From positions 1-40,666 of IMG/VR virus record IMGVR_UViG_2563366836_000013: 40,666 nucleotides of DNA. One strand, given 5' to 3'. The translations under genes and the position numbers were made by a program. Shown here piece by piece: positions 1-40,666 of the stretch. Within the stretch, counting starts at the first letter, position 1; each line of letters begins with the position of its first letter. Origin of the DNA: a virus. Taxonomy: Duplodnaviria > Heunggongvirae > Uroviricota > Caudoviricetes. The notes under the pieces were generated by a model. The model was given only the letters and a program-made list of their open reading frames with translations. It was not told the DNA's origin and ran no database searches.

Positions 1-194
<194 letters not shown>

Positions 195-228
195 GTTTAC
201 GCCGCATCCGGCAAATAGTTAATAGCTC

Positions 229-1512
229 TTACTTCTTCGCCTCTGCAACCACTTTGCTACCCACGCCGCGGTTATTGTATTCCCACATGCGGTTGTAGTT
301 AGTGTCATTCAGATTGCGTTGTATTTCGTCGTTATCATCAACGCTGCCGGTGTTACCCGCAAACGGACGATTAGAGATCACCGCATCAGCCCAGGGTTTG
401 GCTGTGTTAAAACCTTCGTTGATGGCGCTATCACGGATCACCACCTGACCGTTGGTATTGGCATCAACATCCAGCGAGCGACCCAGTTGCGCCACGCCAT
501 CACCGGAAGCATTGAAACGGCTGTTTACGGCGAGGAAACCGTAATAGATGTTAGACAGCGTAGCCGGTGCAAACACATACGCTTCTTGCTGAGTACGTGA
601 GTTCACCACGCGGAATTCGGTGTTATCGAACACCACTGCGCCGCGACCAGAAACGATATCCACATCCCCTTCAATGTAACTGTTGGTCACCAGAGTACGC
701 GGCTGACGGTTGGTTTCCAGACGGTTTTGCACACCACTGTTGGTGACAAAGAAGGTATTCTGACGACCGAGAATGTTGACGTTATTGATCTGCACTTTGT
801 CACCATCAGTACGCAGTGCCACCGCCGGATGGTTACCCGCATCTACGCTATCGCCCAGCGTGTTTTCGATGGTCAGATTTTGCAGTTGCAGGCCATTGTT
901 TTGTGACCAGAAGACCGCAGAGCAGAGAACACCGATACTGTCGCTGCGTTTGCTCTGGCAGCTATCGTACATATACCACGCTGGTTTACCTGGCATATAT
1001 TTGCCGCGCGGGTTGACGTCGTGACGCCAGTCGGCAGGGCTCATGCCCCCATCAAGGGAAAGCCCAATCTTCACATCAATCGGTTTTTCACCTGTACCGT
1101 ACAGAGTAATTCCACCCGGAGCGGCAGGGACATACACCGTTCCCTGATACTCACCAGGCATCACGGCAATATACTGGCGCTTGTTGGTGCGCTTGATAAT
1201 TGCCGCATCTACCGCCGCCTGAATCGTGGTATGCGTTACACCTTGAGTACCCGCCGGGCCGACAACAAAGTCAGGTTGCGCAGGCAGGGTAATCGGGGAA
1301 GGATTCCACGCTGCCGCACCTGGTGTCAGGGATGCAAAATAGTGTTGAGCATCGAAATTCTGCGCTTCTTTTGCCGACAGAATCGGGCGAGAAGAGGTAC
1401 CAGGCGCGGTTTGATCAGAAGGACGTTGATCGGGCGGTGTTGAGCTACAGGCGGTCAGCGTCACGCCAAAAGCCAATGCCAGCGCCAGACGGGAAACTGA
1501 AAATGTGTTCAC
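229..1512 (-). CDS. ybhC: YbhC, pectinesterase-family outer-membrane lipoprotein (host gene flanking attB lambda)
   Basis: 427-aa ORF with lipoprotein signal (LTAC) and pectinesterase-like body; recognised as E. coli YbhC, which neighbours attB(lambda). Confidence 0.85.
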   Translation of the reverse strand: MNTFSVSRLALALAFGVTLTACSSTPPDQRPSDQTAPGTSSRPILSAKEAQNFDAQHYFASLTPGAAAWNPSPITLPAQPDFVVGPAGTQGVTHTTIQAAVDAAIIKRTNKRQYIAVMPGEYQGTVYVPAAPGGITLYGTGEKPIDVKIGLSLDGGMSPADWRHDVNPRGKYMPGKPAWYMYDSCQSKRSDSIGVLCSAVFWSQNNGLQLQNLTIENTLGDSVDAGNHPAVALRTDGDKVQINNVNILGRQNTFFVTNSGVQNRLETNRQPRTLVTNSYIEGDVDIVSGRGAVVFDNTEFRVVNSRTQQEAYVFAPATLSNIYYGFLAVNSRFNASGDGVAQLGRSLDVDANTNGQVVIRDSAINEGFNTAKPWADAVISNRPFAGNTGSVDDNDEIQRNLNDTNYNRMWEYNNRGVGSKVVAEAKK

Positions 1513-1548
1513 AGGTTGCTCCGGGCTATGAAATAGAAAAATGAATCC

Positions 1549-2717: not shown

Positions 2718-2913
2718 TTCTGATCCTCTTCAAAAGGCTACCTGTTACTGGTCGATTTAAGTCAACCTTTACCGCTGATTCGTGGAACAGATACTCTCTT
2801 CCATCCTTAACCGGAGGAGGGAATATCCTGCATTCGCGCACCCATCGACGAACTGTTTCAAGGCTTCTTGGGCGTCGCTGGCGAGCGTTCCACTCCTGAA
2901 GTGTCAAGTACAT
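2695..2913 (-). CDS. xis: Excisionase Xis (lambda-type)
   Basis: 72 aa MYLTLQEWNARQRRPRSLETVRRWVRECRIFPPPVKDGREYLFHESAVKVDLNRPVTGSLLKRIRNGKKAKS; overlaps int start as in lambda. The ORF-track 102-aa version is a 5' over-extension. Confidence 0.93.
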   Translation of the reverse strand: MYLTLQEWNARQRRPRSLETVRRWVRECRIFPPPVKDGREYLFHESAVKVDLNRPVTGSLLKRIRNGKKAKS

Positions 2914-3027
2914 CGCAAAGTCTCCGCAATTACACGCAAGAAAAAGCCGCATTGATGCGGCGATGGTAGGTCTGGATATCATTGAGCAATGAACAGGCCT
3001 CATCGAGTGTGAGGCTGTATGGCTCCA

Positions 3028-3333
3028 TTATTTCACCTCTTGCTGTGTCATTGTTGAAAAATGGATACCAGCTCGTTGCTGCCAGACGATCCAACCGAGA
3101 GTCATATCCCATGCCATGTATTCGTTATCGCCGTTTTTTGCTCTCCGACGATCTACTAAGTCACCGAAACGCTTTTCCATGAATAATTCATAGGCTTCGC
3201 GTTCATCTGGCTCTACTTCCAGAGATACGAGTGCGATTTCATAAGCACGGCGCTCAATATCGTCTCGAACCTCTAGGCTGCTGATTCGTTCTTTGATTTC
3301 TTTAATCAGTTCTTTATTGGTAAATGTGGTCAT
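3028..3333 (-). CDS. Hypothetical early protein (YfdT-like position)
   Basis: 101-aa ORF, acidic helical protein, stop/start coupled with the upstream gene; same order as the CPS-53 yfdP-T cluster. Confidence 0.5.
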   Translation of the reverse strand: MTTFTNKELIKEIKERISSLEVRDDIERRAYEIALVSLEVEPDEREAYELFMEKRFGDLVDRRRAKNGDNEYMAWDMTLGWIVWQQRAGIHFSTMTQQEVK

Positions 3334-3695
3334 TATGCTCCAGCCTCCGGTGCTTTTGGCATTACTGCCCAGTGAGTGATATTGACGTTTTCAAGGTCCC
3401 CGACCTGAAATATCCACTGCCATTCTCCGGTTTCTTTTTGTCCCCAGGTGTACCAGAGAGAACGCCAGCCAATCAGCCAGCCTTCTCCATTAGCATCAAA
3501 TAACAGAACACTTTCATTTGCTGGTGGCAGTTCAGCTGACACTGGTATTATTTTGTTTTCCAGTGCCGCACATTTAGCTTCAAGCGCGTCGAATTTACGT
3601 ACCAGGTACTCAGCATTTGTTTCGTTCACTTTCAGATCTCGCGGTACACATTTCCCGCGAAGAAACCCTTCCATTTCGAAAACATTCATGCGCAT
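3333..3695 (-). CDS. DUF551-like protein (YfdS-like)
   Basis: 120 aa; C-terminal PVSAELPP ... THWAVMPKAPE resembles the DUF551 signature; packed between neighbours. Confidence 0.55.
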   Translation of the reverse strand: MRMNVFEMEGFLRGKCVPRDLKVNETNAEYLVRKFDALEAKCAALENKIIPVSAELPPANESVLLFDANGEGWLIGWRSLWYTWGQKETGEWQWIFQVGDLENVNITHWAVMPKAPEAGA

Positions 3696-5602: not shown

Positions 5603-6071
5603 TTTGCTGCTCCTCATCATATCGACCCTGCAAGGCCGATTAGTTTCTCCACAAAACAGAGAAGAACACCTGTGGTGGCCGCCGCCCGGATGGATTGGGT
5701 TATGAGCCCGTCGTCCGGTGATGCTCTTCTCTGTTTTGTAAAAAGGACGGTACCAGCCGGAAGCAAGGGTACAAGCTGGTACCGCCAGGACTACACACAG
5801 CATAAAGTTGTGGTGCCGGGTGCCTCCCGGTGCCTGGCGAAGGTTGCACACCAGGCGGGTGGGTATCCACAGAAGGTCGACTGTCAGCCTCAACCTTAAC
5901 CCGCGTGCGCTGAGCCGCATTCACCACAACGCTAAGGATTCTCTCTGGTTGAAAATACTTAGCTGTTATGTGCCTGCTTTTAGCCACATCAGGCGAGGTG
6001 GACCTGGTTATTCCCCAACAACAAGGATTCGGTTAATCTGGATATCCCCAACAACAATAAGAGTATTCAAT

Positions 6072-6814: not shown

Positions 6815-7441
6815 TTAGAGTTCGTATTGAACTCCTTTGACTACACCAATGATAAGGCAATTACCATTGATAGGGATGTTGGGATACCGAGGATTTAATG
6901 GCACTAAAAACTTTTGAGGGCCATCGATGACTAATTTTTTTACTGTAGCTTCGTTTGTTCCATCAAGTCGAGCGATGACTATTTTTCCATGACGAGGTTC
7001 TGCATCTGGATCTACAATCACTGTTGCGCCTTCTGGTATTGTTGGGAGGCCATTAGGGTTAGTCATGGAGTCACCTTTAACCTCTAATGCAAATGAGTTA
7101 TCACCAACCTTTAATGATGTATCTACCCACTTGTCCACTTCACTAAACACTTCTGCTGCCCTGCACTCAGTAAACTGCCCAGCCTGAACCCACGATATTA
7201 CAGGAACTCTGCGCATGTTTGTGACGAGTTTGCCTTCAAACTCAGCACCATAAAGAATGTAATCTATTGACGTATTGAAGAACTTCGCTAATTTCGAAAG
7301 TGCCTCCCCACCAGGGGTATTGATGTCTTTCTCCCAGTACCCCACAGCAACGTCGCTTACTCCACAAAATTTACCCAATTCTTTCTGGGACGTTCTGGTA
7401 ACTCTTCTCAGAGCTTTTATACGCTGACCAACCGTTTCCAT
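6815..7441 (-). CDS. CI-like repressor (XRE HTH N-terminus plus LexA/S24-type autocleavage domain)
   Basis: 208 aa; N-terminal HTH (QKELGKFCGVSDVAVGYWE), C-terminal S24 peptidase-like region (GDSM...K); divergent from the cro-like gene. Confidence 0.9.
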   Translation of the reverse strand: METVGQRIKALRRVTRTSQKELGKFCGVSDVAVGYWEKDINTPGGEALSKLAKFFNTSIDYILYGAEFEGKLVTNMRRVPVISWVQAGQFTECRAAEVFSEVDKWVDTSLKVGDNSFALEVKGDSMTNPNGLPTIPEGATVIVDPDAEPRHGKIVIARLDGTNEATVKKLVIDGPQKFLVPLNPRYPNIPINGNCLIIGVVKGVQYEL

Positions 7442-7538: not shown

Positions 7539-7739
7539 ATGACAACTGACGATATCGAAAGCTACTTCGGCAGTATTGAGAAAGTTGCTGCTTTTTTCGG
7601 CATAACAACTGAAGCCGTTTATCAGTGGCGAAACCGTCCGGGCCAGTTAATTCCAAAAGGACGTGCAGCAGAAGCTGCATATAGAACTTGCGGACGGTTG
7701 CCATTTAAACCTGAGCTTTATGAAAAATCTAATGGATAA
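7539..7739 (+). CDS. Cro-like HTH regulator (YdaS-family)
   Basis: 66 aa, FFGITTEAVYQWRNRPGQLIP resembles YdaS/Cro-type HTH; first gene rightward of the repressor; GGAGG RBS. Confidence 0.75.
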   Translation: MTTDDIESYFGSIEKVAAFFGITTEAVYQWRNRPGQLIPKGRAAEAAYRTCGRLPFKPELYEKSNG

Positions 7740-8334
7740 ATCGATTAACAGAAACCACAGAACGATGAGGCTAACCGTGGGTAAGCATCACTGGAAAGTA
7801 GAAAAACAGCCTGAGTGGTACGTGAAAGCTGTCAGAAAAACTATCGCAAAGTTGCCGGGTGGTTACGCTGAAGCAGCTGACTGGCTGGATGTAACAGAGA
7901 ACGCATTATTTAACCGCCTTCGTGCCGATGGCGATCAGATTTTCCCGCTGGGATGGGCAATGATTTTGCAACGTGCTGGTGGCACTCACTTCATTGCTGA
8001 TGCTGTGGCGCAGTCTGCAAATGGCGTCTTTGTGTCGCTTCCTGACGTCGAGGATGTGGACAACGCCGATATTAACCAGCGTCTGCTGGAAGTCATTGAA
8101 CAGATCGGCAGTTATTCAAAACAGATTCGTTCAGCAATCGAAGACGGTGTAGTGGAACCGCATGAGAAGACAGCAATTAACGACGAGCTGTATCTCTCAA
8201 TTTCGAAGCTGCAGGAGCATGCAGCACTGGTCTACAAAATCTTTTGCATTTCAGAAAGTAATGACGCCCGCGAGTGTGCAGCTCCGGGCGTCGTGGCGTC
8301 GATTGCTTCTGGTTGTGGAGAAACTAACGCATGA
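7720..8334 (+). CDS. CII-like regulatory protein (YdaT / Phage_CP76-like)
   Basis: Position immediately after cro; start set at ATG 7720 ([10 protein letters not shown]...), overlapping cro end; start uncertain. Confidence 0.45.
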
Positions 8335-13305: not shown

Positions 13306-13326
13306 GTGTATGGAGCGCTGAGAAGT

Positions 13327-14016
13327 ATGAATCAACAAGACTTGAATTTTGTCAGAATAGAACTACGTCGTGCGCTGTTTGACTTCTCTGGGGGGACAAA
13401 AGGGCAGCTTGAGGCTTTCACTGAACACCCACCAGCAGACAAAAATGCCACTCCACGCCGTGGAATTCATCTTGTCGAACTCGAAGGTGATAAGGGACCA
13501 CGCTTTGTTAACTCGCTTTCCGCGCCATTGTACGTGCAAGAAACACGTAGCCGCCCCAGGCCAATGCCGCCGATAAAAGATGTAGAATTTGAGTCCGCGC
13601 CGTGGCGTAGGGCAGTGTCCGCGCTTAGTGGATACCAGCAGGCTTGGTTGCGGTACTGTTACGGTTTTGACCTTAACTATACGCACCAGGTGATGATGTG
13701 TGAATACGTCTGGAAGGCTTATCAGAAATGCTTGGGTGAAAACTCACTTCAGGAGCGCGTAGTAAAAAAACTAATAGGCCTAGTATGGCTTGCAGGACAG
13801 GAAATTGCTGCAACCCGAAACAATGAAACCTATAAAGACTACGCTGGTGCGGCGCTGGCCCGTATGGTTAGCGTTGACCGTTCGACATGGTTGCGCGTCT
13901 ATTCAGGCCACTGGGCTGGGTTAAAGGCCGCTTTTACCCAGCTTGATGAGTCTGCGCTGGCCATGGCTCTTGAATACTATGAGGATGAAGAAGCTCTCAA
14001 AGTGGGAGAAATATGA
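13327..14016 (+). CDS. Late-gene antiterminator Q (phage 82/21 type)
   Basis: About 229 aa from ATG (MNQQDL...); last early gene before a promoter-plus-terminator unit and the lysis genes. Confidence 0.7.
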   Translation: MNQQDLNFVRIELRRALFDFSGGTKGQLEAFTEHPPADKNATPRRGIHLVELEGDKGPRFVNSLSAPLYVQETRSRPRPMPPIKDVEFESAPWRRAVSALSGYQQAWLRYCYGFDLNYTHQVMMCEYVWKAYQKCLGENSLQERVVKKLIGLVWLAGQEIAATRNNETYKDYAGAALARMVSVDRSTWLRVYSGHWAGLKAAFTQLDESALAMALEYYEDEEALKVGEI

Positions 14017-14075: not shown

Positions 14076-14109
14076 GGAAGCATATTTGATATGTTGCCAA
14101 AGTTTTATA

Positions 14110-14134
14110 AACCCGCCGACGAGCGGGTTTTTTG
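14110..14134 (+). terminator. tR'-like rho-independent terminator
   Basis: CCCGC-CGACGA-GCGGG hairpin followed by TTTTTT. Confidence 0.6.
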
Positions 14135-14209
14135 ATATGCGACATAACCTATAACATTTTTTATAAAATAAAATATAATTGCTTTACCATTATCCTGTGA
14201 GTTGAGCAA

Positions 14210-14995
14210 ATGTATATATTTGAATTGACCAAACCTGGCAACTGGCTTGAAAGTGAAGACAAAGAGTGGTCTTGGAAAATAGAACGGCTTTTGGACCATC
14301 TTGAATTTGCATTTTATGAGGCTAATGTTGCATTAAATTTATTTATGCAGCAGCAAAACAATCAAATAGAACAACAAGGGGTTTCGCAATTGCAATGGGA
14401 AAAAGAAATGCAAGAACGAAGAACCATCGAAACACTAGTTCGTGAGGAGTTAGGTTTATCCCCTTTTGAGAATCCTGAAAACATACAATTTGAGGTGGAC
14501 GCGAGGTTTAAACGAGAAAAGTGGAGTTCTGGTGAAATTCCACGTAGCCACAAACATTGTGTGATTTTTATTTATGCAAAATCTTTTCTTTATTCTCTTG
14601 ATACTATTGATAAATTTATAAAGGTTATTTCGAATGAACCTTATGCTCCTGAGTCGATAAAAGCCCTACACGATCAGATAGGTAAAGATTTTCCTGATCT
14701 CAGAGGGGTTAGGAATTCAACTCAACACCTCGAAGATAGGGCTCGAGGGCTTGGCGCAGGGAGAGAACCGAAGCCTTTGAATCTCCAGCCTATAAGTAAT
14801 ACCTTCATAAATGCACCGCAAGGTGCTTTGATATTAAATAATCTGAATGGCACCAAATTCGGGTCAACTATATCTGATGGTCACTATGGTGAAGTGGACA
14901 TTTCACCTGAATCGTTATCAAAAATGCAAAGTATTGTTCAGGGCGTTCTTGACTCGTTTAAGTGGGTTGGTAATCAGCAACACTTACCAAGTTAA
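14210..14995 (+). CDS. AT-rich moron protein with HEPN-like R-N-x3-H motif (candidate Abi/defence RNase)
   Basis: 261 aa; low GC compared with flanks; RNSTQH at residues 168-173 fits the HEPN Rx4-6H signature; own TATAAT -10 (14174-14179) and downstream hairpin terminator. Confidence 0.5.
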   Translation: MYIFELTKPGNWLESEDKEWSWKIERLLDHLEFAFYEANVALNLFMQQQNNQIEQQGVSQLQWEKEMQERRTIETLVREELGLSPFENPENIQFEVDARFKREKWSSGEIPRSHKHCVIFIYAKSFLYSLDTIDKFIKVISNEPYAPESIKALHDQIGKDFPDLRGVRNSTQHLEDRARGLGAGREPKPLNLQPISNTFINAPQGALILNNLNGTKFGSTISDGHYGEVDISPESLSKMQSIVQGVLDSFKWVGNQQHLPS

Positions 14996-15017
14996 CTAAA
15001 CTTAATTATTCATATTA

Positions 15018-15041
15018 AGGCTGCCATATGGCGGCCTTTTT
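15018..15041 (+). terminator. Hairpin terminator after the AT-rich moron
   Basis: AGGCTGCC-ATAT-GGCGGCCT stem (one mismatch) followed by TTTT. Confidence 0.4.
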
Positions 15042-15088
15042 ATTCCCTTCACTTTTGAGAGGATTCACAGCAATTAAGAGGGGGCTAA

Positions 15089-15475
15089 ATGTCCGATCCG
15101 ATTTCCGGCACAGGGTTAGCTGCTGGAGTCCTGACAGGCGCTAGTGTTTATGGACTGCTGACCGGAACTGATTACGGTGTTGTATTTGGCGCATTTGCAG
15201 GGGCTGTATTCTACATCGCAACAGCAGCAGATCTGAGTTTATCGCGTCGACTGGCATATTTTATCGTGTCGTATATTGCCGGAATCCTTTGCTCTGGGTT
15301 GGTTGGCTCCAAGCTGGCAAACTTGACCGGATACAGTGATAAACCTCTGGATGCTATTGGTGCCGTAATCGTCTCTGCTTTAGCCGTTAAAATCCTGACG
15401 TTTCTGAATAACCAGGATATCGGTTCGCTGGTGGCGCTTATAACGCGCCGGGGAGGTTCAGGTGGAGCTAAATGA
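15089..15475 (+). CDS. Putative holin (multi-TM membrane protein)
   Basis: 128 aa, Gly/Ala-rich hydrophobic helices, strong AGAGGGGG RBS, first gene of the lysis cassette upstream of endolysin. Confidence 0.5.
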   Translation: MSDPISGTGLAAGVLTGASVYGLLTGTDYGVVFGAFAGAVFYIATAADLSLSRRLAYFIVSYIAGILCSGLVGSKLANLTGYSDKPLDAIGAVIVSALAVKILTFLNNQDIGSLVALITRRGGSGGAK

Positions 15476-17082: not shown

Positions 17083-17589
17083 ATGCGACCAGATCAATTT
17101 TTCTATCCAGATACTTTTACCTTTAATTCATCCACCTATTATGGTCAACGTGACTCATCTAAAGGTCGATTGTATATTCCTATTGAAAGTGACTTATGTC
17201 CATTTAATATCGGCGATATCATTGTGCAAAAAATGGTCGACAGGGAAAGACTATTTGAAGTGCTTGATTACGAGGTGCAAATTAGTCTCGAGGCTGGTTG
17301 CCCTGGCTACTCACATTTGGCGGTATTGATAGTGAAGGCATTGGATGTAAAAGAGAAGCCGAAGCAGATTACGACCCATTTGACGTTTAACGGTGCTATT
17401 AATGCTGGTGGTGATTTTCAAGCCGGTAATGACAATTCGATCACAAAGAATATAACCATTCAACAACTACATGATGCTATAGAGCATTGCAATGATCCAG
17501 AGGTTAAAAGCCTTTGGCAAAAGCTATTGGAAAATCCGACGTTTGCTTCAATTGCTTCAATATTGGCAAAAAGTGCTTTAGGACAGTAA
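17083..17589 (+). CDS. AT-rich orphan moron protein (168 aa), unknown function
   Basis: Low-GC ORF with AAGGGA RBS, upstream extended -10-like TGtGATAAT and downstream terminator; sits between spanins and HNH/terminase. Confidence 0.55.
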   Translation: MRPDQFFYPDTFTFNSSTYYGQRDSSKGRLYIPIESDLCPFNIGDIIVQKMVDRERLFEVLDYEVQISLEAGCPGYSHLAVLIVKALDVKEKPKQITTHLTFNGAINAGGDFQAGNDNSITKNITIQQLHDAIEHCNDPEVKSLWQKLLENPTFASIASILAKSALGQ

Positions 17590-28090: not shown

Positions 28091-29909
28091 GCTTAAGGCG
28101 TTGATCACCGGTGTCGACAGGCTTTCTCCCGCGCTGTCGAAAATGCAAAAGAAAATCCGGGGATTTAAACGCCAGGCGGAAGAAGCGTCACAGGGTGGGC
28201 TGGCGCTTGGAGGCGGACTGGCAGCGGGTCTGACGCTTTCCCTGAAATCTTATGCCGATCAGGAAAACGCCGCCACCGGGCTGAAAGTCGCCATGATGGA
28301 TGCGAACGGCGAGGTTGGAAAGAGCTTTCAGGACATCAATAAACTGGCTATTGGCCTGGGTAATCAGCTACCCGGTACAACGGCTGATTTCCAGAACATG
28401 ATGCAGATGCTGGTGCGTCAGGGGATCCCGGCAGAAAACATTCTTGGCGGTGTGGGTAAAGCGACAGCTTATCTTGCGGTACAACTGAAAAAAACACCGG
28501 AAGCGGCTGCCGAGTTTGCCGCAAAGATGCAGGATGCTACCGGAACGGCGTCAAAAGACATGATGGGGCTGTTCGACACTATCCAGAAGGCGTTTTATCT
28601 GGGCGTTGACGATACCAACATGTTGTCCTTCTTCACTAAAACCAGCTCTGTTCTGAAGATGGTGAACAAGGACGGTCTTCAGGCTGCACAGAGCCTTGCC
28701 CCCATCAGCGTCATGATGGATCAGATGGGGATGAACGGGGAGTCGGCAGGTAACGCCCTGCGAAAAGTTATCCAGTCCGGATTAAGCGTTAAGAAAATCA
28801 GGGACGTCAATAAAATCATGGCCCGCCAGAAACTCGGGGTACAGCTCGATTTTACTGACGGCAAAGGGAGTTTTGGCGGTCTTGATAACATGTTCAGGCA
28901 ACTGGCAAAGCTGCGAAAACTGACCGACGTTAAGCGAACAGGCGTACTTAAGGCAATATTTGGTGATGATGCCGAAACCCTTCAGGTGGTCAATGCACTA
29001 ATCGATAAAGGAAAGGATGGCTACGATCAGATCCAGCAGAAGATGAATAAACAGGCCAGCCTGAATAAACGTGTTCAGGCTCAGCTTGGTACGCTGTCCA
29101 ACCTGTGGGAGGCAATGACGGGGACCGCAACTAACGGTCTTGCAGCTATTGGCGGCGCATTTTCTGGTGACGCCAAAAATATCACGCAGTGGCTGGGGGA
29201 GTTGGGGGAGAAATTCACGAAGTTTGCGGATGAAAATCCCCGGGTTATTCGCGGCGTCGTCGGGCTTGCTGCCGGTCTTGCGATTCTGAAACTGGGATTG
29301 ATGGGCGTTGGCGGTGCCATCAGTATTGTCAGCAGGATCATGTCGATGACGCCGATTGGCATGATTGCGACGGCGATAGCCCTGGCTGCGGGATTAATTA
29401 TCACTAACTGGGATGTTGTCGGACCTTATTTTAAGAAACTCTGGGAAACCATTGGTCCTTATTTTGAGGCTGGCTGGGAACTCCTTAAGAAAGTTTTTGC
29501 CTGGTCGCCGCTGGGGATGGTGATCAATAACTGGGGACCGGTTGTTAAGTGGTTTCAGGATATGTGGGACAAGCTGAAGCCAATTATTGAGTGGTTTACC
29601 GACAGTTCCGGTGACACGGTCGATGCCATTAACTCTGCGCAGTGGGGCGCGGGTGCTTATGATGCTTATGGGACGGGAATACCGGCGCGGGGATACACAC
29701 CTTATCCGGCGGTGGATCCGGCTCAGTCAAACAACGCCTCCGATGCCACAGGCCCGAATCCCTTCATGATTAACAAAGCTTCTGCGCCAAAAGTTGATGG
29801 CGAGATCAAGGTTTCATTTATGAATATGCCACCAGGTATGCGGGTTACGGAAACACGTTCCAGTGGCATTGATATTAATCACGATGTTGGGTACACCAGA
29901 TTTAGGTAA
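28077..29909 (+). CDS. Tail tape measure protein
   Basis: 610 aa, helical with C-terminal hydrophobic segments; position after chaperone. Confidence 0.85.
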   Translation: MAEFELKALITGVDRLSPALSKMQKKIRGFKRQAEEASQGGLALGGGLAAGLTLSLKSYADQENAATGLKVAMMDANGEVGKSFQDINKLAIGLGNQLPGTTADFQNMMQMLVRQGIPAENILGGVGKATAYLAVQLKKTPEAAAEFAAKMQDATGTASKDMMGLFDTIQKAFYLGVDDTNMLSFFTKTSSVLKMVNKDGLQAAQSLAPISVMMDQMGMNGESAGNALRKVIQSGLSVKKIRDVNKIMARQKLGVQLDFTDGKGSFGGLDNMFRQLAKLRKLTDVKRTGVLKAIFGDDAETLQVVNALIDKGKDGYDQIQQKMNKQASLNKRVQAQLGTLSNLWEAMTGTATNGLAAIGGAFSGDAKNITQWLGELGEKFTKFADENPRVIRGVVGLAAGLAILKLGLMGVGGAISIVSRIMSMTPIGMIATAIALAAGLIITNWDVVGPYFKKLWETIGPYFEAGWELLKKVFAWSPLGMVINNWGPVVKWFQDMWDKLKPIIEWFTDSSGDTVDAINSAQWGAGAYDAYGTGIPARGYTPYPAVDPAQSNNASDATGPNPFMINKASAPKVDGEIKVSFMNMPPGMRVTETRSSGIDINHDVGYTRFR

Positions 29910-29940
29910 AGACGAACAGGGAGGGCCGCCCTCCCTGAAC

Positions 29941-30351
29941 TTACTGTGCGAACACGCAATTTCGGCCTGATGGGGAGCCGACAATTCTGGACATTTTTCC
30001 GCAAATAACAGTTACTTGTTCTCCTTTTTTAAGAGCAGCAGCTGTTGATTTTTCAGAGTCTTGCATCTCCATTCTTGCTGGCATGAATTCATTTTCAGTT
30101 CTGAATTTAATAATTATAGAGTCAGTAAAGTCCTTATCAATGGATTGTACGATACCTCTAACGGCGATTAATTTACCTTTTAACTGTTCATCGGTAGCGA
30201 CTTCATTTTCTTCATACTCTTTAAACAGCTGTCGAGCAGTAGTGTTGTAGATTTCTTTTTGCGGTGCCGCAGCTTCCGTATCGGATGAGTATGAAGAATT
30301 AGAGCCTTTATCGTTACCAGTAAATATTACTACTGATAATAAATATGGGAC
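29941..30351 (-). pseudogene. 5'-truncated OB-fold (tRNA_anti-like / BOF-type) gene without start codon
   Basis: Minus-strand frame open for 136 codons: ...LLSVVIFTGNDKGS...ARQLFKEYEENEVATDEQLKGKLIAVRGIVQSIDKDFTDSIIIKFRTENEFMPARMEMQDSEKSTAAALKKGEQVTVICGKMSRIVGSPSGRNCVFAQ*; no ATG/GTG/TTG before an internal Met; in-frame stop immediately upstream; AT-rich. Confidence 0.45.
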
Positions 30352-30355
30352 TTAT

Positions 30356-31681
30356 ATGACGTGGAAAGACAGACTTCAGGACGCGTCATTTCGCGGCGTG
30401 CCGTTTAAGGTTGAAGAAGAAAGTGCGGGAACCGGTCGCCGTGTGGAAACACATGAATACCCGAACCGCGACAAACCCTATACCGAAGACCTGGGGAAAA
30501 TCACTTTTCGCCCGTCCATCACGGCTTATGTGGTGGGAGATGACTGCTTTGACCAGCGCGATCGCCTGATTGACGCGCTGAATAAACCCGGTCCCGGCAC
30601 GCTTGTCCATCCGACATACGGTGAGCTGAAAGTCTGTGTTGACGGAGAAGTTCGGGTCAGCACATCGAAGAGTGAAGGGCGTATTGTCCGCTTTGACCTG
30701 AAGTTTGTCGAAGCGGGAGAACTCTCTTACCCCACTTCAGGTGCGGCGACGGCGCAGACGCTGATGTCATCCTGTTCTGCACTGGATGACTGCATCAGTG
30801 ACAGCTTCAGAGGTTTCAGTATCGATGGCGTGGCGGATTTCGTGCAGAACGACGTCGTCGGTAATGTCAGCACAATGCTTGGGTATGTTTCTGATGCGAT
30901 GAAAGTGGTGGATTCTGCCGTATCGGATGCTGCCAGGCTGTTGCAGGGGGATATCTCGGTACTTCTGCCGCCGCCATCGTCAGGCAAAAATTTCGTTGAG
31001 CAGGTGCAGAAAATGTGGCGTACCGGGAAACGCCTTTATGGTAACGCCAGCGACCTGGTCACCATGATCAAAACGCTTTCCGGTGTCAGCCTCGGCAGCG
31101 ATCTGCAACCGCGCGGCGTCTGGAAAACGGACAGTAAAACCACCGCCACGGCTACGCAGCAGCGTAACGTGGTTGCCAGCACCCTTCGTACGACCGCAAT
31201 CAGCGAAGCGGCGTATGCCGTCACCCGATTGCCTGCGCCAACAACTTCCGCGGTGATGCAGAATGCCGCAGTGGGGCAGGCAACAACACCTGCGCAGAGC
31301 ACTGGCTGGCCTTCCGTCACGCATCCGGCACTGAACAATGCACCGACGGTGAAAAACACAGTTGACCTGCCGACGTGGGAAGAACTGACTGACATTCGCG
31401 ACACACTGAATACGGCAATTGATAAGGAGTTGTCCCGTACAACCAGTGATGCGCTGTTTCTGGCGCTGCGCCGGGTGAAAGCAGATCTGAATGCGGATAT
31501 CAACACGCGCCTTGAACAGTCTGCACGGATCATTCAGCGCACGCCGGATGAGGTTTTACCCGCGCTGGTGCTGGCGGCGACCTGGTTTGATAACGCGGCG
31601 CGTGACGCGGACATTATCCGGCGTAATGCCATTACGCATCCCGGATTTGTGCCGGTGATCCCTCTGAAGGTGCCAGTGTAA
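30356..31681 (+). CDS. DNA circularisation protein (Mu gpN-like) of the baseplate
   Basis: 441 aa, N-terminal MTWKDRLQDASFRGVPFKVEE... typical of Mu N-like proteins. Confidence 0.8.
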   Translation: MTWKDRLQDASFRGVPFKVEEESAGTGRRVETHEYPNRDKPYTEDLGKITFRPSITAYVVGDDCFDQRDRLIDALNKPGPGTLVHPTYGELKVCVDGEVRVSTSKSEGRIVRFDLKFVEAGELSYPTSGAATAQTLMSSCSALDDCISDSFRGFSIDGVADFVQNDVVGNVSTMLGYVSDAMKVVDSAVSDAARLLQGDISVLLPPPSSGKNFVEQVQKMWRTGKRLYGNASDLVTMIKTLSGVSLGSDLQPRGVWKTDSKTTATATQQRNVVASTLRTTAISEAAYAVTRLPAPTTSAVMQNAAVGQATTPAQSTGWPSVTHPALNNAPTVKNTVDLPTWEELTDIRDTLNTAIDKELSRTTSDALFLALRRVKADLNADINTRLEQSARIIQRTPDEVLPALVLAATWFDNAARDADIIRRNAITHPGFVPVIPLKVPV

Positions 31682-36992: not shown

Positions 36993-38468
36993 CTAAAGTG
37001 AATCTATTCCATTTTTCCAAATAAGAACTTTTTTGTCTTGTATTTTATGAGTGCTATCAGGCTGCCCAAACTGTTTTATGGCCTTTTCCTCTTGCTCTAC
37101 ATCATCAGCAATTAAAAAATTAGCTCCTTTTTGGTACCATTCTTTTTTTGATAACCAATTATATGGTGTGAATCTATCACCATACGACTCAAATGGAGCT
37201 ACGTTGATATCACTAAATCCAGCAACAGATGATGCAAACCAAAATGATGCATAACCTCTTTGTAGTTTATTTTTTATTAAGAAATCTCTTAATTCTATTG
37301 TAATATCATTTTTATTAACAATGTTTTTTGTTGTTGCCATCGTTGGCAACGATAACGCAATAACGATTAATGATATTAGTAAATTTGTCTTCACTGGTAA
37401 GGAGAAAGAATTTCTAGCAATCACAATTGACATGAAAATAAACGTTGGGACTATGTATCTAATTGAGAAAAGATTTGTTGGCCTGTCACTTGAAACATAG
37501 GCAATCAACATGACTAATGATGATACAATAAGAACCTGGTCAATAAAATCAATTTCTTTAAATTTAAGAATGTTTTTATAAGATAAAAATAAGAATACAA
37601 AAATGAAAAACACCTTTATCATGGTGAATAATGAGTTAAAGCTACCTATCTCCATTCCAAACGCGTACCCACCAAAAAATTTGAATACGCCCATGATAAC
37701 AAGAGATATGTTGCTTGTTATTTGTTGAAACTCTACTATGTGAGGTTTGGTTATGCCTGGCAGGTTAAATCCACCAAGCTTAATGAATATAAATGATATG
37801 AGCTCAGCAATAAATATAGATGATATAGTGAAAACCAACAATAACAAATCATTAGTATTCAACGAATCTCTTTTCATTAGAGAAGCATACATTCTATATA
37901 TGCAAACAAAAACTATAGGTATTATAAAGGCATATTTAGATATATCATCACTAAAAACAAGCAACGATAACATAAATACATATGGAAAAAGTAATTTTAA
38001 ATCATTTTTCTTTCTGTATCTATCTATTATTAGTATGATCGCCAGCATGTAAATGTACGCACCAATATGTATACATGCTATAAGCATTATACTTGATGAG
38101 AAAACCGTTGGAATTCCAAATACAGAAAGAACAGGCCATAACGATGCCCTGCTTTTAGTATGAGAGATATATAGCGATAGTGTTACTAACATAGACATGA
38201 AAATTCCAGGCACAATATAGTACAGATTTTCATTAAATCCTATTATTTTTATCGCTATAGCATATGGTATTATTTCTGTGAAATAGAATGATACAGTTGA
38301 TAAATCCCACCCACTGAGAAAAATATTTCCTTCAGTAATATCCCTTGCCTCTCTGAATGAAGACATGACATCTGAGTTTGGAATTATGTTTTTAGCAATC
38401 ATTGAGTAAATTATTGATAATACAATAAATGTTGCCAGCCAATATAAAAGCTCAAGCTTCTTGCTCAT
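36993..38468 (-). CDS. GtrC-type serotype-specific O-antigen glucosyltransferase (polytopic membrane protein)
   Basis: 491 aa, very AT-rich, many TM helices, immediately downstream of gtrA-gtrB (ATGA-coupled). Confidence 0.8.
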
Positions 38469-39382
38469 TTTTTACCCTTAAGTACATACTTTGGACGCTG
38501 CTTAACTTCAATGTAAATTCTACCAATATACTCACCGAGCACTCCAATCCCAATTAACTGGATGCCGCCAAGAAATAATATTGATACAAGAATTGAAGGG
38601 TATCCAGGTACATTATTACCAAAAATTAATTTATCAATTATCATCCATGAACCGTATGTAAATGATATACATGCAATAAATAACCCAATATAGGTCCACA
38701 TGCGAAGCGGGAATGTTGAGAAGCTAGTGATCCCTTCCAGCGCCAAGTTCCATAGCTTCCATCCATTGAACTTTGTGCTTCCTGCAACGCGTTCTGCTCG
38801 CGCATATTCTACGACATCGGTTCGACCACCAACCCAGCTCAGCACACCCTTCATAAACAGGTTTCGTTCTGGCATGAGCTTAATGTTTTCTACTACTTCG
38901 CGAGACATGAGCCGGAAGTCGCCAACATTCTCTTCTATCTGAGGGTTGCTGATTTTGTTATGAAGTTTATAGAACCACTCAGCAGATTTACGCTTCAGCC
39001 TGCTGTCAGTGGAGCGGTCAGAGCGTTTAGCCAGAACCATATCTGCACCGGCCTGCCATTTCTCTATCAAGTGAGGAATAACTTCGATAGGGTCTTGCAG
39101 ATCAACGTCAATCGGGATAATTGCCTCCCCGGTAGCATGGTCCAGACCTGCGAACAGGGCGGGTTCTTTGCCGAAGTTACGTGTGAACGACAGCGAAACA
39201 ACAAGCGGGTCGGCAACAGCAAGCTCGTTGATAATTGATTCTGTAGCGTCTTTGCTGCCATCGTTTATGAAGACTATCTCGACTTCATGCTGCTGAAGCC
39301 CTTCAAATTCGCGCACAGTTTTATAAAAAATAGGTATCGTGGCCTCTTCGTTAAAGACCGGAACGACTAAAGAAATTTTCAT
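38465..39382 (-). CDS. gtrB: GtrB bactoprenol glucosyltransferase (GT2 family)
   Basis: 305 aa, [13 protein letters not shown]...FINDGSKD...DVDLQDP GT2 motifs and C-terminal TM helices. Confidence 0.92.
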
Positions 39383-39741
39383 TTCGCATCCCTAAAGACA
39401 ATGAACTTTGAATAGACGAAACCGCACACCAGGCTGATGGCGGAGAAGGTGACAAGAGTTATCATCGGGGGAAGTGCGCATCTATCAGCAGCCCATCCAA
39501 CAGTAGCACTGAGTGTTCCCATGAACCCGACATATAACATGTAGCGCATCGTTGTAGTTGATGCTTTGAATGTGAATTTTGCATTCGCGAAGAAGCTAAA
39601 ACTCACAGCCACAACGAAACCTGCGAAGTTTGCCAGAGCCTGATTGGTATGCGCGGCATAGATACATACACCAAAAACCACCCAGTGTATAAGTGTGTTC
39701 AGCACACCAATCGAGGTGTACCTTGCAAATATATTTAACAT
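39379..39741 (-). CDS. gtrA: GtrA flippase (bactoprenol-linked glucose translocase)
   Basis: 120 aa, four TM helices, GtrA-like; first gene of operon. Confidence 0.9.
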
Positions 39742-40189: not shown

Positions 40190-40666
40190 TTAACTAAACA
40201 TCGCAGTAATCGAGGCGCTTGCCAGAGAATGGAAATGGACGTTAAACCCGACCATCGCGCCGCTGGCACCTTCATCGACATCAATACGTTCTACATCCAG
40301 CGCGTGAACGGTAAAAATGTAGCGATGGGTTTCGCCTTTCGGCGGCGCTGCACCATCGTACCCGGTTTTACCAAAGTCGGTACGCGTCTGCAAAACGCCG
40401 TCTGGCATTGCTACCAGACCAGAGCCAAACCCTTGCGGTAATACGCGGGTATCAGCGGGTAAATTAACAACTACCCAGTGCCACCAGCCGGAGCCGGTTG
40501 GCGCATCCGGGTCGTAGCAGGTGACAACAAAACTTTTCGTTCCCGCAGGAACATCATCCCACGCCAGATGCGGTGAAACATTATCGCCATCGTAACCCAT
40601 GCCGTTAAAGACATGACGATGTGGCAACTTATCGCCATCGCGCAGATCATTACTGATGAGTTTCAT
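40190..40666 (-). CDS. ybhB: YbhB (PEBP / UPF0098 family protein), host gene flanking attB lambda
   Basis: 158 aa MKLISNDLRDGDKLPHRHVFNGMGYDGDN...; start codon at the window edge. Confidence 0.85.
   Translation of the reverse strand: MKLISNDLRDGDKLPHRHVFNGMGYDGDNVSPHLAWDDVPAGTKSFVVTCYDPDAPTGSGWWHWVVVNLPADTRVLPQGFGSGLVAMPDGVLQTRTDFGKTGYDGAAPPKGETHRYIFTVHALDVERIDVDEGASGAMVGFNVHFHSLASASITAMFS

Follow-up and report, generated by a model that had tools for sequence, protein, structure and literature searches.

Solo nucleases that act in abortive infection (Abi) and are carried by prophages or other mobile genetic elements are an established concept, with HepS, Tha, and the Abi HEPN proteins as examples. 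HepS is the "HEPN solo" abortive-infection protein coded by STM14_3211 of prophage Gifsy-1 (Sargen et al., Nature 2026, PMC13043305); it is under 250 aa long with its motif near residue 100, is expressed constitutively from a lambdoid accessory slot, is harmless at rest, and is switched on by a siphovirus tail-tip protein, whereupon it cuts tRNA anticodon loops. Prophages of Staphylococcus aureus carry Tha, a tail-activated HEPN system (PMC11087260), and Tha and the AbiV/AbiU2-type systems are HEPN effectors on prophages or integron cassettes that are triggered by phage structural proteins. The Abi_2 proteins (AbiD-AbiF, PF07751) are single-gene, plasmid- or phage-borne systems of about 340 aa with a motif of the style hydrophobic-R-N-x-x-[A/x]-H. 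Lambdoid prophages, moreover, carry morons between Q and S (stx, tRNAs, methylases, and others) that are of foreign composition, have a promoter-like site 5' and a terminator 3', lie between late-operon genes, and differ among sibling prophages. The gene described here, which occupies a slot of this last kind, resembles each of these systems in part, and its architecture is distinct from that of the solo nucleases.

The window (the whole 40,666-nucleotide stretch of viral DNA that was analyzed) contains a prophage located between host genes ybhC and ybhB, in the part of the chromosome where phage lambda has its attachment site. The ybhC end (window positions 1-1520) adjoins the integrase and excisionase genes, and ybhB, a PBP-family gene, is at 40190-40666 on the minus strand. 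The prophage is 99.6 to 100% identical to one in Escherichia coli SCU-482 except for an IS5 insertion in the latter, which is at about window position 5960; several early genes of the SCU-482 prophage are also annotated as frameshifted. No tRNA genes or Rfam elements were found anywhere in the window.

Three other regions of the window are of atypical composition. A second AT-rich moron (17083-17589, plus strand, GC 0.32 to 0.40) lies between the Rz/Rz1 and HNH/terminase genes and codes for a 168-aa protein that matches PHROG 5789 (unknown function) but nothing in Pfam, NCBIfam, or PADLOC; the equivalent slot in sibling prophages contains a DUF2441 gene (locus L015) or a gene for a 187-aa hypothetical protein (locus L003). 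At the right end of the prophage, positions 36993-39741 (minus strand, GC 0.30 to 0.40) form a gtr-type O-antigen glucosylation operon with GtrA (PF04138), GtrB (GT2, PF00535), and a 491-aa gtrC-like gene without a Pfam match, and this block is a classical serotype-conversion and exclusion module. There is also a dip in GC to 0.44 at 29900-30360, in the interval that separates the tape-measure gene from the tail gene following it, where SCU-482 has an annotated 128-aa minus-strand "OB-fold protein"; in the window, minus-strand ORFs there do not exceed 56 aa and the only plus-strand one is 55 aa long, and the OB-fold gene may be disrupted or different in the strain from which the window derives.

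The moron ORF (14210-14995, plus strand) starts with ATG and codes for a 261-aa member of PHROG 5322 that is identical to WP_001673687.1, a "hypothetical protein" at the 100%-identical locus of SCU-482. The choice of start is backed by the N-terminal sequence M-x-[IV]-F-E-[LI]-x-x-P-G, which is kept in all homologues, and the leader upstream of it is 76 nt long. To its left is the antiterminator Q gene (13306-14016, plus strand; PF06323, 3.6e-37; phrog_304, 1.3e-71), followed at 14109-14130 (plus strand) by a hairpin and T-run detected in a terminator scan, which resembles tR'. To its right, the same scan finds a second terminator at 15017-15045 (plus strand; hairpin 15017-15038, then TTTTATT), ahead of a holin gene (15089-15475, plus strand; PF16931, 9.1e-35) that begins the lysis cassette; the genes 3' of the ORF comprise two holins (PF16931 and PF05449), a GH19-type endolysin, and an Rz-like gene.

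A preliminary description of this locus had called the ORF AT-rich relative to its flanks, assigned it a promoter and a terminator of its own, and placed it as a moron in the Q-holin slot. The ORF and its composition are as described, with a GC content of 0.385, lower than in either flank (0.53 and 0.50) or in the window as a whole (0.506), and the assignment to the slot is borne out by at least six distinct prophage backbones of enterobacteria in which the family occupies that slot. The promoter-like sequence and the hairpin are both present, but neither is as distinctive as had been thought. The sigma-70-like promoter candidate (14151-14179, plus strand) consists of ATAACA at 14151-14156, a 17-nt spacer, and TATAAT at 14174-14179, and matches the consensus at 10 of 12 positions. 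Promoter-like sites are, however, no more common in the AT-rich region of the ORF than in shuffled sequences (4 versus 3.5 ± 2.1), so that the match is not statistically distinctive in such a stretch and the promoter is plausible rather than statistically supported. The hairpin with its T-run at 15017-15038 is likewise not private to the gene, as prophages with an unrelated gene in the slot share the sequence from 15016/15017 onward.

Comparison with 5,426 complete E. coli genomes delimits the cargo, with homology breakpoints at query positions 734 and 1617, corresponding to window positions 14133 and 15016; the exchangeable segment is thus 14134-15016 (plus strand). The Q module, including the tR'-like hairpin, is common to other prophages (E. 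coli Nissle and others) up to 14133, and homology in the lysis module resumes at 15016/15017, 15043, or 15056, depending on the genome. The segment of about 880 bp is present in only 25 of the 5,426 genomes, and the gene overall in about 0.9% of E. coli genomes, versus more than 200 genomes with the flanking lysis module. In Nissle the same slot contains an S49 peptidase and a methyltransferase, and in the prophage of O169:H41 F6326-C1 it contains two hypothetical genes unrelated to the moron ORF; one of these is of similar size and was considered as a homologue, and was rejected when comparison showed it to be unrelated. The Q-holin interval is therefore a true exchangeable cargo slot between two hairpins, and its occupant is a moron by virtue of its foreign composition, its insertion within a conserved operon, and the alternative cargo of related prophages. 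Both hairpins (14109-14130 and 15017-15038) coincide with the homology breakpoints between prophages of differing cargo, and they may be recombination boundaries for exchange of the cargo. These features are those of the lambdoid Q-S morons, with the difference that the cargo here belongs to an uncharacterized family that also travels in integrons, as a cassette, and on plasmids.

The protein belongs to a large family without a name or a described function. A word-indexed search returned 404 homologues, and all 120 that were listed are named "hypothetical protein," most of them 257 to 270 aa long and a few up to 300 aa. When 1.84 billion cluster representatives (50% identity) were searched exhaustively with the family profile, 967 clusters matched at E ≤ 1e-3, of which 431 reached E ≤ 1e-30; the best 150 of the 967 are mostly full-length proteins of about 260 aa, with a few fragments (180 to 230 aa) and a few proteins up to 318 aa, and no fusion to another domain occurs among these 150. 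A profile scan (alignment A1) of 185,579 species genomes identifies 66 loci, mostly in several classes of Pseudomonadota, together with Campylobacterales, one acidobacterial genome, and a partial match in one actinobacterial genome. Homologues from Acinetobacter, Vibrio, Chromobacterium, Limnobacter, and a Desulfuromonadales genome are still at least 50% identical to the E. coli protein, and tblastn against 50,697 deposited phage genomes gave no match.

The suggestion that this gene was undescribed is supported by the model libraries and the searchable literature. Scans of the window protein against Pfam, NCBIfam, PADLOC, and PHROGs return PHROG 5322 ("unknown function") as the sole match, and no Pfam or PADLOC model consistently matches the members of two alignments of 52 and 87 sequences. 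PADLOC-DB v2.0.0 has no match to the window protein and yields only scattered single-member matches (E about 0.005) among the 87. Neither the accession nor any description of the family was found in the searchable literature, neither the family accessions nor its peptide strings are present in the DefensePredictor supplements, and the main text of a 2026 integron-cassette preprint does not describe the family. A domain-centric screen (NAR 2026) left out single-gene systems.

Homologues are found in a variety of mobile contexts. Four Klebsiella prophages that differ in Q family (PF06323 or PF06530), lysis genes, and terminases have a 60%-identical homologue, always between Q and the holin and with a similar hairpin 3' of it. 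In three of the four, gene callers predict a small ORF (51 to 86 aa) just 5' of the homologue and oriented against it (loci L004-L007, about 7630-7895, minus strand); nothing equivalent occurs in the E. coli window, and the ORF may not be a real gene. E. coli itself has a second allele, which is 58% identical, is present in 23 genomes, and lies in a sibling prophage with a PF03589 antiterminator on one side and a PF05106 holin on the other. In Vibrio parahaemolyticus, homologue P0093 (locus L012, 7001-7786) is bracketed by attC-type repeats at 6861-6982 and 7790-7926 within an array with 12 attC-like repeat copies, identifying it as an integron cassette. That array (L012, 1-9000; GCA_031154015.1) also includes HEPN_AbiV (2763-3389), GNAT, glyoxalase, and PNPOx cassettes, and a group II intron reverse transcriptase and an SMC/AAA_15-type ATPase are just beyond it.

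Plasmids and bacterial chromosomes carry the gene as well. The 4,168-bp Psychrobacter plasmid pA53P1 (locus L019, NZ_MN657115.1) has the homologue (1356-2207) directly flanked by rep and mobA, as its only gene besides rep and mobA/mobC; this mobilizable plasmid would be a convenient natural minimal construct for functional work. On small Acinetobacter and Proteus plasmids the homologue lies beside Abi_2, RelE/HTH, and YafQ/DinJ genes, with the Abi_2 gene directly upstream of it in Acinetobacter. The Desulfuromonadales homologue is between Xre-RES, a large AAA_21/SMC ATPase, and a type I restriction-modification (R-M) system, and the Chromobacterium homologue is an orphan with a GC content of 0.50 among genes of GC 0.645. 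An unbiased survey of 150 flanking ORFs from 49 of the 66 loci shows many housekeeping genes, with toxin-antitoxin (TA), R-M, and CBASS-type genes scattered through them, and no recurrent partner (at most 4 of 150). The association with defense islands is real but moderate. No conserved neighbor is present in 49 plus 15 loci, in keeping with the single-gene module that had been proposed, and the DNA upstream of homologues in different taxa has no common sequence or repeats. A hidden antitoxin or partner was sought and rejected, there being no conserved neighbor, upstream sequence, or RNA family. Taken together, these contexts indicate that the gene needs no co-encoded partner, is tolerated alone, and moves horizontally as a unit of one gene.

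The protein contains the sequence RNSTQH at residues 168-173 (nucleotides 14711-14728), as had been reported, and this was the sole basis for the earlier proposal that it is HEPN-like. In one sequence this is weak evidence and within chance expectation: shuffles that preserve composition contain R[NDH]x3H in 4.2% of cases, R[NDH]x3-5H in 11.5%, and plain Rx4-6H in 62%, and the motif is also present in 3 to 5 of the 44 ORFs of at least 150 aa in the window. It is raised above chance by its conservation across the family. Residues R168, N169, H173, E175, R177, and R179 are invariant in 52 closer members, and in 87 divergent representatives that are 30 to 52% identical to the query (alignment A2), the residue preceding R168 is V, I, or L in all 87, R168 is conserved in 86 and H173 in 85, position 169 is N in 61 and D in 25, position 170 is S or T in 83, position 175 is E in 75 and D in 11, position 176 is D in 72 and E in 11, and R177 is present in 83; the more distant D131 is conserved in 81. 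Two of the 87 lack the R...H pair, having R-S-x3-C and S-D-x3-R, respectively, and in one of these two the E-D-R block is missing as well. Conservation exceeds that of R168 only at G10, G224, and W252, all of them in a predicted beta subdomain. The R-[ND]-[ST]-x2-H-x-[ED]-[DE]-R block (R168-N-S-T-Q-H173-L-E175-D176-R177 in the window protein; codons at 14711-14740, plus strand) is the dominant polar feature of the aligned sequences, a genuine family signature, and a candidate active site. The signature has the form expected of HEPN, reportedly set out by Anantharaman and colleagues in 2013 as a hydrophobic residue, Arg, N or D, three residues, and His, and Rx4-6H with a polar residue after the Arg is found nearly family-wide.

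The predicted structure is of high confidence. AlphaFold2 gives a pLDDT of 89 with the 52-sequence alignment, and a pLDDT of 97.4 and a pTM of 0.91 with the 87-sequence alignment, for which all five models score at least 97. Both AlphaFold2 models agree on short N-terminal strands, helices at 18-55, 60-81, 89-106, 112-141, 149-160, and 164-178, and then strands at 211-230, a helix at 233-248, and a final strand. The protein is thus modeled as one compact unit, in which a six-helix bundle (18-178) is clamped by a beta subdomain composed of the N-terminal strands and residues 211-259. DSSP assigns R168 to a short helix (164-172) and H173 to a kink. Foldseek searches of the PDB and BFVD with the 52-sequence-alignment model gave nothing significant, only generic four-helix-bundle matches, and the predicted fold is compatible with HEPN without being diagnostic of it.

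Searches for a link to known HEPN families were negative. None of the 139 members of the two alignments (52 + 87) matches a HEPN profile, PF18728 (HEPN_AbiV) included. In hhalign comparisons of the family profile with the Abi_2 protein coded by a neighboring gene, the RNxxxH motifs are in register, yet the probability is 0.2%; it is 0.4% against a purpose-built 44-sequence Abi_2 profile and 3% against an AbiV-type protein, where the alignment is to an unrelated segment. Sequence and profile searches of the PDB (2026 copy) found no HEPN protein, the only hits being insignificant and unrelated chains, namely choline kinase (E 0.018 to 0.033), SRP54 (0.14), and phosphopantetheine adenylyltransferase (0.59); no relationship to HepS was detected in this copy, which is assumed to include the HepS structure 9OIK. 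HEPN families are often mutually undetectable by sequence, and these results therefore weaken HEPN membership without ruling it out. The HEPN call thus fares unevenly, in that the near-invariant R-[ND]-[ST]-x2-H motif and the all-alpha bundle stand in its favor, and the profile searches and structure comparison suggested in the preliminary description return no HEPN profile link and only generic four-helix-bundle matches. The call had been presented as resting on one short motif only, and this is no longer so, since family-wide near-invariance and the all-alpha bundle make it stronger. Overall, we place a HEPN-type site at slightly short of an even chance.

Comparison with the systems introduced above shows both likeness and difference. 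Like HepS, the window protein is coded by a single gene in a lambdoid prophage accessory slot with no conserved partner or inhibitor gene, and has an Rx4H motif with a polar residue after the Arg and a predicted all-alpha core; we propose that it also resembles HepS in being latent at rest and in combining sensing and killing in one protein. It differs in its length of 261 aa, the position of its motif at 168-173, its extra beta subdomain, and its genomic slot. Likeness to Abi_2 extends to the style and register of the motif and to single-gene mobility, but the Abi_2 proteins are longer, with other invariant residues. The mobile contexts recall those of Tha and the AbiV/AbiU2-type systems, whereas the family members match neither PF18728 nor any other HEPN Pfam model.

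The gene probably serves conflict between genetic elements by one mechanism or another, and a role in defense is suggested by its mobility and context. It might do so without being a HEPN protein, with the conserved block and D131 forming the active or ligand-binding site of an enzyme or sensor of a new helical-bundle type (for example, a phosphodiesterase, a nuclease of another kind, or a switch that binds nucleotides) and the likeness to Rx4-6H arising by convergence. We consider this rather unlikely, although it accommodates the lack of a profile link to any HEPN family, the generic fold matches, the additional conserved E175, D176, and R177 after the His together with D131, the predicted position of the motif in a short kinked helix, and a mobility pattern like that of defense or toxin cargo. 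It leaves to coincidence the exact HEPN pattern in 85 to 86 of the 87 divergent members, inside an all-alpha bundle, and the mutual undetectability of HEPN families makes the negative profile results weak support for it. Accessory cargo outside of defense, whether a stress or fitness factor, a regulator, or an aid to element persistence that hitchhikes in slots, is unlikely. Many homologues are indeed amid housekeeping genes (PTS/GntR in Chromobacterium; purD/purH, NlpA, and GNAT), defense and TA genes make up only a modest share of the neighbors, no known defense model is matched, and the Q-holin slot of Nissle contains a peptidase and a methyltransferase. But the recurrence of the gene in integron arrays, small plasmids, and R-M/TA islands, its sparse and patchy distribution despite >50% identity across classes, and its enzyme-like invariant polar cluster fit a conflict gene better than a housekeeping one.

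Two further explanations concern what the gene would do for the element that carries it. A toxin with a missed antitoxin in cis, such as a small RNA or a micro-ORF in the 76-nt leader (type III or AbiF-like), could stabilize the element, and homologues do occur on small plasmids beside classical TA pairs; AbiF-type HEPN proteins, moreover, can have RNA antitoxins (PMC12373285). Such an arrangement is very improbable given that the leader is so short, upstream regions across taxa have no common sequence or repeats, the window has no Rfam element, there is no conserved adjacent ORF, and rep and mobA directly flank the gene in pA53P1. In every prophage example the gene is directly 3' of Q/tR' and co-oriented with the lysis genes, as would be expected of a phage late function such as lysis timing or shut-off of host RNA in lytic growth. 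This explanation too is very improbable, as it is contradicted by the 50 to 55%-identical proteins on plasmids, in integrons, and as a chromosomal orphan without phage genes nearby, and by the absence of the gene from deposited phage genomes; moreover, the gene is much rarer in E. coli than the lysis module flanking it, and unrelated genes take its place in sibling prophages.

Our preferred, still tentative, reading is that the gene codes for a HEPN-like RNase that is self-contained and latent and works through abortive infection or exclusion, by analogy with HepS; the RNase chemistry, latency, trigger, and defense phenotype are what we infer. In a lysogen, the ORF would be transcribed from its putative AT-rich promoter, which would be the only active one because tR' would shield the ORF from PR'. 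Following induction, Q-modified polymerase would read through both hairpins, making the ORF the first late gene ahead of the holin, as the gene order suggests. The V-R168-[N/D]-[S/T]-x-x-H173-x-[E/D]-[D/E]-R177 block and D131 would constitute a HEPN-type metal-independent RNase site, with the protein remaining latent until a phage-derived cue switches on the RNase; once activated, it would cut tRNA or mRNA, and the infection would be aborted. That the protein is a new and structurally distinct class of one-protein immune sensor-effector, with R-[ND]-x3-H-x-E-D-R representing an unrecognized HEPN branch or a convergent center, we regard as quite unlikely. Under that reading, because the gene is at the head of the late operon behind a possible promoter of its own, it could have two modes of action. 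In one, the lysogen would be guarded against incoming phages; in the other, a Q-dependent boost at induction would shut down competitors or host RNA while the resident phage completes lysis.

If the preferred reading is correct, about a thousand clusters of "hypothetical proteins" spanning Enterobacterales, Vibrio, Acinetobacter, Pseudomonas, Burkholderiales, and beyond would gain a function, and a defense gene missed by PADLOC v2, Pfam, and NCBIfam would be added to those known. Being a one-gene module of 0.8 kb that a 4-kb plasmid can carry with no other cargo, it is easily testable, and its Q-holin location provides a natural experiment as to whether the gene is active in lysogeny, in lytic growth, or in both. 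It would also be the second case, after HepS, of a prophage that carries a suicide nuclease without harm to its own spread.
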